Assembly (NCBI GenBank): GCA_041494705.1 | Contig: JBGQBI010000006.1 | Coordinates: 120,001 to 152,000 of the forward strand | From: Candidatus Methanoperedens sp. | GTDB lineage: Archaea; Halobacteriota; Methanosarcinia; Methanosarcinales; Methanoperedenaceae | Length of the DNA: 32,000 nt | Direction of reading: 5' to 3' | Shown here: in pieces, positions 19,513 to 30,371 of the stretch | Layout: each line of letters opens with the position of its first letter | Numbering within the stretch: the first letter of the stretch is position 1 | Made by a program: the position numbers and the translations under genes | Notes under the pieces: model-generated | What the model saw: the letters and a program-made list of their open reading frames with translations, nothing else | What the model was told of the DNA's origin: nothing | The model's database searches: none

Positions 19513-21141
19513 ATGAGAAAAATTTACTTAGCAGCCGCTATCGTCTTTCTGGCGTTAGTAGGCTTAGCATGGGCGTTTACACCGCCACCGCCGCCGGTAC
19601 CTCAGAACCTTGGTTTATATGATACCGGGATAGACCATCTTCAGACCACTGCAATCGACCAGAGTGCATGTAGAGTCTGCCATCAAACATCAGGAACAAA
19701 TATTAGTGGCGGATACGCCAATACCGTTGGCGGAGTGCCAACAAGGCATCATAGCCTGTTGCCTGGAAATGTGAAAAATCCATTAACCGGTGCTACATTC
19801 GGTTGTACGGATTGTCATCCATCAACTCCAGGAGTAGGCAATGGAATATTGTTAGACAGAAGCTGTGTAGATTGCCATAATGGATCAACTTTCTGGGGCA
19901 ATTCGATTGGCGGACATGTAGGTAATTTCAGCAGACCTCATCATGTCAATACATCATATGCCAGTTCACATATTGGAAATCCTGCTGCAAACAGGACTTG
20001 CAAATTCTGTCACGGCAGTTTCGTGGCCAGCTACAACGATGGACATTATAAACCAGCATATGATACATCGTTCATGATAACGCCATTCGCCAGCTTTAAG
20101 GTTACCGACTTCTCCACACCTGATGGACTTGGCGGCAATAAGGTATGGGGCGGTTGTTATTCATGCCATCTTCCCAATCCTAATGCAACACCAAGTGTAA
20201 TTGACAGCAACCATGACACCCATCACAAGGAAATCTTGGGTCTTGGCAAATTTGGCGGTCAAACCGTATTCCAGAATGCATCCACTCCAGGTGCGGATTG
20301 TTTCTGGTGCCATGTAATTGCACCAGGCAGCACAAGCCCGTTGAGATTCAATATAACCAATCCATTTACTGGCGAGCTCATCGTCAAGGCGATGGAAGTC
20401 AGGAACTCAACTATTGAAGCAACAGATGTGTTTGAACCAGGGACGACTAATATCACCTTTAATGGTACAGGTTGCGAGAAATGCCACGATGTCAAGTCAA
20501 TCCATAACATCCAGTATAACTATGTCCAAAATGGTCCGGCTGGATTTGGCCATATAAACAACAATTCGGATTGTTCTGGCTGTCATGATTCATGGGTTCC
20601 AGCAACGGACTTTGTACCCGGCGCCCTTGTTCCATATGTGGATACGGTGAGCCCGTCAGCAATAGCAGTAAACACTGCTACGACTCTTACCATCACAGGT
20701 TTGAACTTCGTGAATGATCCATATACATCTGTAGTAACCGTAGATGGAACGACATATACGTCGTCATCCATAACAGATACGCAGATAGTAGTTGACATTC
20801 CGGCACTCAGCGCAGGTGCCCATGAACTGCAACTTGTGAAAGGCGGAGATACTCTCAGCAAACTGTATACATTGATTGTTGCACCAAATTCAAAGATAAC
20901 AACCGCGAAGTTGAGCAGTGGAGTAATAACCATAACCGGTTTGAACTTCGGAACTAAGCCTGCAACAAATGCACAGTATTACGTAAGCGTCAATCATGGA
21001 GGAAACCAAATCCGCTCTACCGCAATCAACAGCTGGAGCAGTACTCAGATAAAAGCAACGAATTCTGCTGCTGCAGTAGGCGATTGGGTAACAGTGATGA
21101 CTAAGGATGCTGGCGAAGTAAGGGCAGTAATAACCCGATAG
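19513..21141 (+). CDS. secreted octaheme c-type cytochrome with two C-terminal Ig-like (IPT/TIG-type) domains, paralog 1
   Basis: A 542-aa ORF with an N-terminal signal-like segment and exactly 8 CxxCH motifs (CRVCH, CTDCH, CVDCH, CKFCH, CYSCH, CFWCH, CEKCH, CSGCH). All 16 Cys residues are in these motifs. The heme-free region from about 20626 has ITITGLNF-type beta modules. There is no TM anchor. Confidence 0.9.
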   Translation: MRKIYLAAAIVFLALVGLAWAFTPPPPPVPQNLGLYDTGIDHLQTTAIDQSACRVCHQTSGTNISGGYANTVGGVPTRHHSLLPGNVKNPLTGATFGCTDCHPSTPGVGNGILLDRSCVDCHNGSTFWGNSIGGHVGNFSRPHHVNTSYASSHIGNPAANRTCKFCHGSFVASYNDGHYKPAYDTSFMITPFASFKVTDFSTPDGLGGNKVWGGCYSCHLPNPNATPSVIDSNHDTHHKEILGLGKFGGQTVFQNASTPGADCFWCHVIAPGSTSPLRFNITNPFTGELIVKAMEVRNSTIEATDVFEPGTTNITFNGTGCEKCHDVKSIHNIQYNYVQNGPAGFGHINNNSDCSGCHDSWVPATDFVPGALVPYVDTVSPSAIAVNTATTLTITGLNFVNDPYTSVVTVDGTTYTSSSITDTQIVVDIPALSAGAHELQLVKGGDTLSKLYTLIVAPNSKITTAKLSSGVITITGLNFGTKPATNAQYYVSVNHGGNQIRSTAINSWSSTQIKATNSAAAVGDWVTVMTKDAGEVRAVITR

Positions 21142-21159
21142 ACATAACAAAATGAATGA

Positions 21160-29100: not shown

Positions 29101-30371
29101 CTCTGTACTGTACAGAATGCCATGCCAACAATACGATTGGAAGTAAAGCAGGCAGGGATATACATGGCATAAAGTTCCTCCAGAAGGACAATACATTCTC
29201 TCAGAGTAATGTAAATGCTGTAGATTGTACGACATGCCATCAGTCAAATGTTGTAGATGGCTCTCTTGGAATAACTCCAATCAAAGTAAGCAACCCATTG
29301 CATCATTCGGATGATCTGCTCAATGGATCGAAATGGGGCAGCTACTGGACGAATCAGACCGGTTCTTGTCTATATTGCCATAATGACACGAAACATAGTT
29401 CGACACCTTTAGGCAGACCATTGATATGGAATCCATCATATGTGCTCAATTCTACCATTAGCAGTGGAACTAATTGTGCAGATTGTCACTATCAAGGGGA
29501 TAGCAATTATAGTCAGATGAGTTCTGAATTTACAGGTGTCGGGCTTGGTTTATCTCCAGAGATCACCAACGGTAGCTGGAATGGCAAACCTGGCTACTAC
29601 AATCATACCTTGAGTGATTATACAGATTCTCAATGTAAGTCATGCCACGACAAATCCGGAAGTACGACTGTTGGTCAACTGATGCACAATAACTCTGTAG
29701 GGTCAGCAGGAGGTCCTGATTGTAAGGCATGTCATGATGCGGGAGGTACTGCACCCAAACTTGTCAATTTCAGCACTGCAAATAATTCAGCACATAAGAA
29801 TTTAAATAGTGGAGCATCTTCGACTGTAAATGCTGAGAATAAGAAATGCTGGGCATGTCATGGAGATGGTACTCAACCTGGAAGCGGGCATCCTTCTGCA
29901 TATATGACACCGGATCCTTGTGAGAATTGCCATACAGGTACAGGAGGATATAATGCACCGCTGGTGAAAGAACATATCCAGAATGGAAGTGATGTACAGA
30001 CCGCCGCAGCCTGTAATCTGTGTCACGACAACAATGGAATGTCTATAGGGAGTGGAGGTATCGGTACAATAACACATTACATCAAAAATGTGACTGATAC
30101 AATGACAACTCCATATGGACATTTTGGTACGATTGATACTACCAATTGTCTCATTTGCCACAATGACCAATATACAGGAAATGCATCATGGGGCTCACCA
30201 GTAAATATTACGACAAGTTTAAAGAGAAAACATACTGAAACGACAAATGTACAATGTGACGGCTGTCATAAAGACGATACCATTAGTACGCTGGCTAATG
30301 TTGATTTCCATAATGCATCACTTAGTAATTTTGGAGGCAATTGTCTGGATTGTCATGCTAAGGCAGAATAA
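26118..30371 (+). CDS. giant secreted multiheme c-type cytochrome (28 CxxCH + 1 CX4CH)
   Basis: A 1417-aa ORF whose ATG overlaps the protease stop (ATGA) and is preceded by GGAGG. Domain order is a signal-like N-terminus, a roughly 200-aa heme-free Ser/Thr-rich region, a (TP)n linker, an Ig-like beta domain, then the heme region. Heme motifs were counted by hand. There is no C-terminal TM segment. Confidence 0.92.
   Translation: [1417 protein letters not shown]
26751..26843 (+). repeat. in-frame tandem repeat encoding a (Thr-Pro)n linker
   Basis: The 12-nt unit CCAACTCCCACT is repeated four times perfectly (26757-26804), followed by degenerate units. The translation is [31 protein letters not shown]. 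Confidence 0.95.

Follow-up and report, generated by a model that had tools for sequence, protein, structure and literature searches.

In this study, we analysed a stretch of 32,000 nucleotides from Candidatus Methanoperedens sp. (NCBI GenBank assembly GCA_041494705.1, contig JBGQBI010000006.1, positions 120,001 to 152,000 of the forward strand; hereafter, the window). Positions 19513-30371 of the window hold five genes that, with a probability of about three in four, form an OmcZ-type cytochrome-nanowire cassette, in which the cores of three octaheme proteins (P1, P2 and P3) would be cut by the protease OzpA and polymerise into conductive wires for extracellular electron transfer. The locus is a further instance, in a multi-copy version, of the already recognised OmcZ/OzpA system. 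Its genes are as follows (window positions).

19513-21141, + strand: P1 gene, 542 aa, 8 CxxCH heme sites
21273-22757, + strand: P2 gene, 494 aa, 8 CxxCH
22883-24268, + strand: P3 gene, 461 aa, 8 CxxCH
24274-26121, + strand: gene for an OzpA-like S8 protease, 615 aa, 0 CxxCH
26118-30371, + strand: giant cytochrome gene, 1417 aa, 28 CxxCH and one CX4CH (residue 445)

A reading made earlier from the letters of the window (the original prediction) had proposed five co-directional genes for secreted multiheme cytochromes of ANME-2d/Methanoperedens (ANME, anaerobic methanotrophic archaea), acting as one functional module of extracellular electron transfer, and this general reading holds. The open reading frames (ORFs) lie on the + strand at exactly the coordinates that it gave, and counting the CxxCH and CX4CH sites by script returned its hand count of 8+8+8+28 plus one. 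A hydrophobic-segment scan agreed with it on a signal-like start and no C-terminal anchor: in each of the five products it found a single hydrophobic segment, located N-terminally, and never one at the C-terminus. The claimed richness in N-x-S/T sequons is also borne out, with 1.6-4.1 per 100 aa in the five products (1.4-2.7 times the expectation from their own composition) against 0-1.0 in the other 17 tabulated window proteins and 0-0.56 in those of the 17 for which neither a transmembrane nor a signal-like segment is predicted. The signal segments, the surplus of sequons and an extracellular stalk domain (CLIPPER) in the protease (PMC12617251) suggest that the products are exported. The paralogs had been correctly described as three octaheme proteins with immunoglobulin-like (Ig) domains; what had been missed is their identity as OmcZ homologs, seen in matches to PDB entry 8D9M. 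This identity is easy to miss, because standard Pfam and NCBIfam scans name neither OmcZ nor OzpA and return generic labels (cytochrome c7/c3/MtrC, TIG, subtilase or mycosin). Pfam found IPT/TIG domains in genes 1-3 and an I9 propeptide with Peptidase_S8 in gene 4; against PF22113 (cut-off 30 bits), P1 scored 27.6 and P2 22.5 bits, and P3 was not reported.

In a PDB sequence search, P3 matched the 473-aa OmcZ precursor of Geobacter sulfurreducens (8D9M) with E=8.8e-61, residues 14-456 aligning to 15-462; P2 matched it with E=8.4e-46 over residues 18-486 and P1 with E=4.5e-37. All three also matched the OmcZ filament chain 7LQ5, and the search gave no match for P1-P3 besides OmcZ entries. We aligned 11 sequences, namely P1-P3, G. 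sulfurreducens OmcZ and homologs from a second Geobacter, ANME-1, ANME-2c, two other Methanoperedens, Nitrospirota and Thiodiazotropha. The eight heme sites are kept throughout, except that the first cysteine of sites 2 and 6 is missing from a few of the proteins. Nine histidines outside the motifs are invariant in these bacterial and archaeal proteins, eight distal ligands being required (P1 79, 80, 143, 144, 178, 237, 238, 331 and 347, corresponding to G. sulfurreducens 64, 65, 120, 121, 146, 206, 207, 239 and 265), and the heme and histidine columns are likewise invariant in 67 Methanoperedens sequences. This pattern is consistent with all eight distal histidines lying within one subunit, as in bis-histidine hemes. 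The sequence PPPPVxQxxGxYDT, which would form the mature N-terminus, directly follows the hydrophobic segment in P1-P3 and is kept across the alignment; mature Geobacter OmcZ is reported to start at P27 with PPPV. The C-terminal 170-190 residues of P1-P3 form two Ig/IPT sandwiches according to Pfam (TIG), an AlphaFold2 model of P1 and Foldseek. In this model (mean predicted local distance difference test score, pLDDT, 72.9) the sandwiches reach 80-95 and the linker stays below 50, and a Foldseek search against the PDB matched the Ig domains to the IPT domains of plexin and Met. We therefore assign P1, P2 and P3 as OmcZ pro-proteins, each with a Sec signal, an octaheme bis-histidine core and a C-terminal tandem Ig pro-domain. 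The parts of P1 and P3 are listed below.

P1, residues 1-22: signal peptide
P1, residues ~23-366: heme core, with an insertion of ~50 aa between hemes 6 and 7
P1, residues ~336-366: flexible linker
P1, residues 375-457 and 461-540: Ig domains
P3, residues ~1-26: signal peptide
P3, residues ~27-268: octaheme core
P3, residues ~260-275 (nt 23660-23707): linker predicted to be cleaved by OzpA
P3, residues 276-461: tandem Ig pro-domain

The P3 precursor has a calculated mass of 51 kDa and its core, hemes included, one of 31 kDa, a pair that matches OmcZ50 and OmcZ30 of Geobacter (PMC9473688). The corresponding values are 60 and 41 kDa for P1 and 55 and 36 kDa for P2. Public gene calls for L001 let P3 start at an internal methionine at 22916 (450 aa) instead of 22883 (461 aa). 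We prefer the longer form because it restores a positively charged n-region of the signal peptide (MNKRH) and because its alignment with the L087 and L090 orthologs begins at residue 1.

The protease encoded by the fourth gene has the following parts.

N-terminus: signal peptide
Residues 47-97: I9 propeptide
Residues 123-379: S8 catalytic domain
Residues 397-512: CLIPPER/DUF11 insert
Residues 521-613: OzpA-type C-domain

Its catalytic triad (D132, H172, S324) is intact and the Peptidase_S8 match has an E-value of 5.6e-61. With the OzpA encoded beside omcZ in Geobacter sp. AOG1 (L029), it shares 42% identity over 436 aa (E=7e-98). Residues 521-613 separately match the C-terminal domain of that OzpA (411-504, E=4e-9), and in the reverse search the Geobacter OzpA C-domain recovered the window protease (E=3e-6). 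Because of this identity and of a C-domain matched in both directions, the protease is best classified as an ortholog of the OmcZ-processing subtilase OzpA (GSU2075) with an inserted extracellular stalk domain; CLIPPER (formerly DUF11) domains are described as isopeptide-bonded surface modules (PMC12617251). The protease is the expected maturation enzyme and not an oddity embedded in the locus. It could be argued that it is a general secreted subtilase, for nutrition or for S-layer or glycoprotein processing, that came to lie beside cytochrome genes by chance, since the PDB and NCBIfam entries that it matches best are generic subtilisins or mycosin and CLIPPER domains occur in many surface proteins (PMC12617251). 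The presence of the OzpA-specific C-terminal domain, the gap of only 5 nt to P3 and the ATGA overlap with the giant cytochrome gene make such a coincidence extremely unlikely, and the genomic context in other organisms argues in the same direction.

To describe this context, one genome per GTDB species was scanned, which yielded 93 OmcZ-like stretches, of which 80 loci were kept. Their hosts are Methanoperedens, ANME-2a/b/c, ANME-1, Desulfuromonadales, Desulfobulbales, Gammaproteobacteria, Nitrospirota and others. In an ORF and phmmer survey of the 64 loci with enough sequence (archaeal L004-L031, L047, L050, L053 and L062; bacterial L020-L083), an S8 protease starting at most 400 bp downstream of the last OmcZ gene was found in 14 of the 18 archaeal and in 37 of the 46 bacterial ones. 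This makes at least 51 of 64, spread over Methanoperedens, marine ANME, Desulfuromonadales, Desulfobulbales, Gammaproteobacteria and Nitrospirota, and two of the misses (L014, L078) are scoring artefacts. The complete gene order is not a one-off juxtaposition absent from relatives, which by the original prediction's own criterion would have refuted it. The order P1-P2-P3-protease (with CLIPPER)-giant cytochrome is exact in two other Methanoperedens lineages, namely in L087, where the proteins are 89-96% identical, and in L090, where they are 73-82% identical and the genomic context differs; permuted versions occur in L089, L084 and L008. In L089 (positions 1-9100; GCA_040961345.1, 371-kb contig), the order is P1, P1', P2, protease, P3, a small cytochrome with the N-module of the giant cytochrome, and P3'. 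Upstream of that cassette lie an NrdD fragment, RmuC, a YqaJ exonuclease, a TFIIS-type zinc ribbon, PNKP and an extra S8 protease, that is, genes of mobile or extrachromosomal type, and the L089 cassette may be a copy on a Borg or a jumbo extrachromosomal element.

The original prediction had regarded the combination of octaheme-Ig cytochromes and a protease as not known to be characterised. This was wrong, because such a cassette has been characterised in Geobacter and reported in ANME and Methanoperedens (PMC9012536, PMC10874420, PMC11208441). An uncharacterised five-gene electron-transfer module, whose embedded protease has a role unrelated to the cytochromes, is favoured by the five-gene layout itself and by the silence of Pfam and NCBIfam on OmcZ and OzpA. 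Against it stand the direct matches to solved OmcZ structures, the OzpA orthology including the common accessory domain, the OmcZ-protease adjacency kept in Bacteria and Archaea, and the published clusters of this kind, so that it is very improbable.

In Geobacter, the omcZ-ozpA-prolyl isomerase operon (GSU2076-GSU2074) has been characterised by genetics, biochemistry and cryo-electron microscopy: the pro-protein is exported, OzpA strips off the Ig domains and the 30-kDa core self-assembles into a conductive filament, and purified OmcZ50 plus OzpA is reported to suffice for OmcZ30 filaments in vitro (PMC9473688; bioRxiv 10.64898/2026.07.18.739370). The locus shares with this operon the Sec-exported octaheme pro-protein, the eight heme sites, the distal histidines, the PPPPV N-terminus, the tandem Ig pro-domain, a directly downstream subtilisin-like protease with I9 and a matching C-domain, and the 51/31 kDa pair of P3. 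Since every sequence feature needed there is retained here, the same function is the most likely one. Sequence shows what the parts are, whereas their cleavage, their polymerisation and what the giant cytochrome does are inferred. By homology with Geobacter, all five proteins would be exported and become heme-loaded or N-glycosylated outside the membrane. OzpA would activate itself by removing its I9 propeptide and would then cut the pro-proteins in the flexible linker that separates the last heme motif from the first Ig domain. Once released, the cores (~31 kDa in P3, 36 kDa in P2 and 41 kDa in P1) would polymerise into conductive heme wires, through which electrons from the oxidation of methane would reach minerals, electrodes or partner cells. 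More speculatively, the giant cytochrome might be a cell-proximal conduit that charges the wires and is itself supplied by a methanophenazine:cytochrome c oxidoreductase whose genes lie elsewhere in the genome.

The locus also differs from the Geobacter operon. It has three subunit genes instead of one, a CxxCH at heme 2 where Geobacter has CX14CH, no PpiC-type isomerase, a CLIPPER insert in the protease, a translationally coupled 29-heme cytochrome and sequon-rich proteins, and its host is an archaeon with an S-layer and without outer membrane or periplasm. Several of these points, and some further ones, weigh against wire formation. The Geobacter OzpA site FGNSS (PMC9473688) aligns to the linker of P1-P3, but its sequence is not kept there. 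The CX14CH position is a canonical CxxCH in P1-P3 and in all archaeal homologs aligned, and the CX14CH loop is reported to contribute to the subunit interface of Geobacter OmcZ. The cores of P1 and P2 contain sizeable insertions and many sequons (7-12 per core in P1-P3), which could hinder polymerisation and contrast with Geobacter OmcZ, for which there is reportedly no evidence of glycosylation. Of the 46 bacterial loci, 39 have a gene for a PpiC/SurA-type prolyl isomerase after ozpA, whereas a phmmer search with the Geobacter protein returned no such gene from the 18 assessable archaeal loci or from any part of the window, and Pfam scans of 20 flanking window ORFs did not detect the family either. 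In Shewanella, this isomerase is described as required for good OmcZ expression. In the Foldseek search with the P1 model, OmcZ was absent from the top 50 matches and the heme core was not recovered. Foldseek says nothing on this core, since it is mostly loop and was modelled without hemes, and the OmcZ fold of the core is therefore assigned from sequence. Finally, a 2026 review states that no OmcZ-type filament has been seen in Methanoperedenaceae to date (PMC13046784).

Potentially, the OmcZ-like proteins form no wires and serve outside the cell as a monomeric or loosely matrix-bound octaheme reservoir, or as a short-range relay round the S-layer, with OzpA only releasing or trimming them. 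The absence of filament sightings stated in the review, the lack of isomerase and of the CX14CH interface loop, and the sequons of the cores all fit such a role. In addition, OmcZ modules often lie C-terminally in larger proteins, which makes free polymerisation less obvious. The family counts 252 members at E<=1e-10 among 1.84 billion 50%-identity representatives, and in at least 19 of the 150 best family representatives the module stands at the C-terminus of a longer protein (e.g. P0189, P0216, P0226, P0238 and P0263), behind N-terminal extensions with 0 to 21 further hemes. A free N-terminus may thus not be universal in the family. However, more than 60 loci from two domains of life keep the pro-domain, the flexible linker and the dedicated protease, and it is difficult to see why a simple soluble cytochrome should keep a removable Ig pro-domain and a protease of its own. 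According to the literature, the CX14CH loop is not essential, since a subset of Borg OmcZ likewise lacks it (PMC11208441) and an engineered OmcZ with a canonical heme II still makes wires, and some putative OmcZ operons are reported to have no isomerase (bioRxiv 10.64898/2026.07.18.739370). We therefore consider a wire-free reservoir or relay improbable and favour the nanowire cassette.

Bit scores and a neighbour-joining tree group P3 with the OmcZ homologs of marine ANME, and by bit score P3 is also the best match of the Geobacter OmcZ proteins among the three. P1 and P2 form two separate clades that are confined to Methanoperedens, and a P2 ortholog occurs in L004, L087 and L090. P3 is thus the canonical OmcZ ortholog. 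In the tandem-copy genomes L008, L010 and L011, the copy adjoining the protease is again of P3 type, which argues for an old triplication, and the protease-adjoining subunit gene appears to be the ancestral copy.

The giant cytochrome is composed of the following parts.

N-terminus: signal peptide
Residues 36-210: beta-sandwich N-module
Residues 212-244: (TP)n linker
Residues ~240-345: MG2-like Ig domain
Residues 418-1417: heme region

It has 62 homologs at E<=1e-10; those with a named source come nearly all from Methanoperedens, ANME or Methanosarcinales, and four are named to bacterial metagenome-assembled genomes. By this relationship gene 5 can be classed with the giant (1000-2400-aa) multiheme cytochromes of ANME and Methanoperedens. 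A full-length alignment shows its CX4CH to be kept in a 39%-identical homolog, P0136. Against PF22113 the protein scores 108.9 bits. A hidden OmcZ repeat was rejected as an explanation of its heme region, in which only weak local similarity to P1 was found round the heme motifs (E=4e-4). Nor does it correspond to the S-layer-spanning conduits of Chadwick 2022: a Pfam scan detected no S-layer (DUF1608-type) family, there is no membrane anchor, and the N-terminus consists of two beta-sandwich modules, one of them MG2-like. An Mtr-type porin-cytochrome conduit was dismissed as well, since the likeness is one of heme packing only (PF22113) and both a barrel gene and, in this archaeal host, an outer membrane are lacking.

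Some further features of this gene were observed. Its N-module (window 26223-26747) recurs in two copies, with 76-78% identity, in P0178, a 2132-aa surface protein with He_PIG, Big_9 and PKD domains, a single C-terminal CxxCH and no multiheme domain, so that the module appears to be exchanged among Methanoperedens surface proteins. The (TP)n linker is encoded by a 12-bp tandem repeat (window 26742-26849) and is polymorphic in length, as the window is 24 bp (four TP units) longer than the otherwise 99.9%-identical L001. Between the MG2-like domain and the first heme site lies a 14-residue motif (residues 369-382, window 27222-27263), also kept in P0136, for which a disulfide loop or a metal site are possibilities. 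A 102-nt direct repeat inside the gene (28512-28613 and 29832-29933, 73% identity) reflects duplicated heme-module units.

The giant cytochrome appears to be tied to OmcZ by more than adjacency. The cluster of its closest homolog, P0134, has the order OmcZ, protease, OmcZ, giant cytochrome, and in Methanoperedenaceae FeB_1 an ORF with its N-module begins at the stop of the FeB_1 OzpA. Moreover, two genomes encode a heme region fused to a complete P1-type OmcZ module with Ig domains, FeB_1 (L007:6968-11488, 1506 aa, 28 CxxCH) and M. nitroreducens ANME-2d (L012:7130-11455, 1441 aa, 29 CxxCH). The fused N-terminal regions carry 20-21 hemes, and that of L007 is a clear homolog of the window giant cytochrome (33% identity over ~1250 aa). 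The L007 fusion gene lies beside orthologs of the VTT and radical-SAM genes of the window, and no protease gene was found near either fusion gene. Since a P1-type module is here joined to the C-terminus of a giant cytochrome homolog, one might tentatively imagine a differentiated wire, with the giant cytochrome as cell-proximal socket, the P1-type module as nucleating or capping adaptor and P3 as bulk wire, rather than three redundant subunits. We regard this as a rather unlikely elaboration of the nanowire cassette. How an OmcZ wire plugs into the cell is described as likewise unresolved in Geobacter. If the elaboration were true, archaea would have solved in their own way both this connection and folding without the bacterial periplasmic isomerase.

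The proposed transcription units P1, P2 and P3-protease-giant cytochrome fit the hairpin and T-run sites given below. The last three genes are tightly packed, as had been noted, and P3, the protease and the 29-heme cytochrome would be cotranscribed and translationally coupled. The spacers after P1 (131 bp) and P2 (125 bp), earlier described as AT-rich with T-runs, each contain a hairpin followed by T7 or T8.

21157-21197, + strand: terminator or attenuator after P1, 14-bp hairpin then T7
22779-22829, + strand: terminator or attenuator after P2, 18-bp hairpin then T8

These are two of the four terminator-like sites on the + strand between 17000 and 31000 and have by far the longest stems; compared with shuffled sequences, the spacers fold with z = -4.1 (after P1) and -3.4 (after P2). 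As P1 and P2 each stand before a hairpin and T-run of their own, their dosage could be adjusted separately. A scan for sigma-70 promoters was disregarded, not being meaningful for an archaeon. A further element lies upstream of P1.

19392-19423, no strand assigned: perfect 12-bp inverted repeat, AAATCAGCATCA-N8-TGATGCTGATTT, 90-120 bp upstream of P1 and abutting a TTTAAA box

The repeat had 0 matches in 100 shuffles. Among 86 loci it occurs only in contigs of the same genome, which rules it out as a conserved operator. It may be a candidate operator or regulator binding site, and its membership in the system is uncertain. A gene for a FilR1-type regulator (17512-18327) lies just upstream of the repeat and is likewise found there in L087 and L088. 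FilR1, UbiA and CcdA were rejected as conserved partners of the cassette, FilR1 and UbiA adjoining it only in the close relatives L087 and L088.

Accounts of Methanoperedens OmcZ/OzpA clusters with large cytochromes reportedly include Gu 2023. Among the systems closest to our locus are the Methanoperedens cluster Metp_02468/02469, in which OmcZ and OzpA homologs occur with 37-heme and 15-heme cytochromes and which is upregulated on electrodes by a log2 fold change of at least 3.6 (Ouboter et al., 2024; PMC10874420), and the OmcZ clusters of Methanoperedens hosts and of Borgs (Schoelmerich et al., 2024; PMC11208441). Both studies share with the locus the genus and the presence of an OmcZ homolog, an OzpA homolog and extra large cytochromes in one cluster. 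The Ouboter cluster differs in that one OmcZ gene is named and that the large cytochromes have 37 and 15 hemes compared with 29 here. In the available parts of the published accounts we found no specific mention of the cluster of this genome. An OmcZ-like 8-heme cytochrome of M. nitroreducens is induced by Fe(III) (Zhang et al., 2023; PMC10542353). In marine ANME-2a/2b/2c, OmcZ homologs are reported beside enormous cytochromes (Chadwick et al., 2022; PMC9012536). P3 falls into one clade with these homologs, and the proximity of a giant cytochrome is matched in the marine locus L047, where OmcZ is followed by a 30-heme protein of 1350 aa. In contrast to the locus, the marine loci have a single OmcZ copy, and their proteases carry other accessory domains, such as NosD/beta-helix plus dockerin in ANME-2c E20. 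The filaments of Geobacter OmcS and OmcE and the tetraheme nanowires of the archaea Pyrobaculum and Archaeoglobus (Baquero et al., 2023, as cited in PMC13046784) are also polymerised multiheme cytochromes for long-range extracellular electron transfer. However, they show no sequence kinship to P1-P3, whose PDB matches are OmcZ entries only, and no OzpA-type maturation is described for them. In OmcS and OmcE, moreover, a heme is ligated by a histidine of the neighbouring subunit, a feature that OmcZ lacks (PMC9473688). The lack of isomerase in 18 archaeal loci contrasts with the statement that an isomerase belongs to the conserved cluster of Methanoperedens and Borgs (PMC11208441). Judging from the available parts of these sources, the ancestral protease-adjoining copy, the archaeal cassettes without isomerase, the CLIPPER insert and the fusions of giant cytochromes with OmcZ modules seem to be less described.

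The locus is chromosomal DNA of an ANME-2d archaeon (Candidatus Methanoperedens). The window flanks contain archaeal housekeeping and regulatory genes (PheRS beta, TrmB, FilR1, SdhAB-like and BioY), and those of L001 thermosome, Alba and SAICAR synthase, the first two just past the window. The protease sequence is also present in NCBI assembly GCA_041480985.1 and in several run assemblies, and a 2.07-Mb contig likewise carries no fewer than three of the five proteins, namely P1, P2 and the protease. In view of this contig and of the housekeeping flanks, an origin from a Borg or another mobile element was rejected for the window. As the original prediction had remarked, the locus encodes no membrane-integral electron entry protein. 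Pfam scans of the flanking ORFs found none of cytochrome b or NrfD type in the window, and the electron input must therefore come from elsewhere; published models place this step in separate gene clusters (PMC10874420, PMC9012536). No Rfam or tRNA matches were found in the window. A CcdA/DsbD-type membrane protein of cytochrome c biogenesis is encoded 2.7 kb upstream of the cassette (16114-16845, - strand); as it does not adjoin the cassette in L087, L089 and L090, this linkage is probably incidental. Two genes for MMPL-family half-transporters, followed by a CARDB/NPCBM-assoc surface protein gene (2973-6559, - strand), look like an export module unrelated to the cytochrome locus.

Metal oxides, electrodes and possibly partner cells take up the electrons when Methanoperedens oxidises methane, and how electrons travel beyond its cell surface is still listed as an open question (PMC13046784). 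The locus offers a compact, defined set of parts with concrete predictions, namely that P3 would be converted from 51 to 31 kDa by a cut at residues 260-275, P1 from 60 to 41 kDa and P2 from 55 to 36 kDa. The comparison across genomes adds that the protease-adjoining gene would be the ancestral one, that archaeal systems seem to dispense with the isomerase, and that giant cytochromes appear linked to OmcZ modules at the gene level and, in some genomes, also within one polypeptide. In summary, the locus is real and is probably important for exporting electrons in this archaeon.

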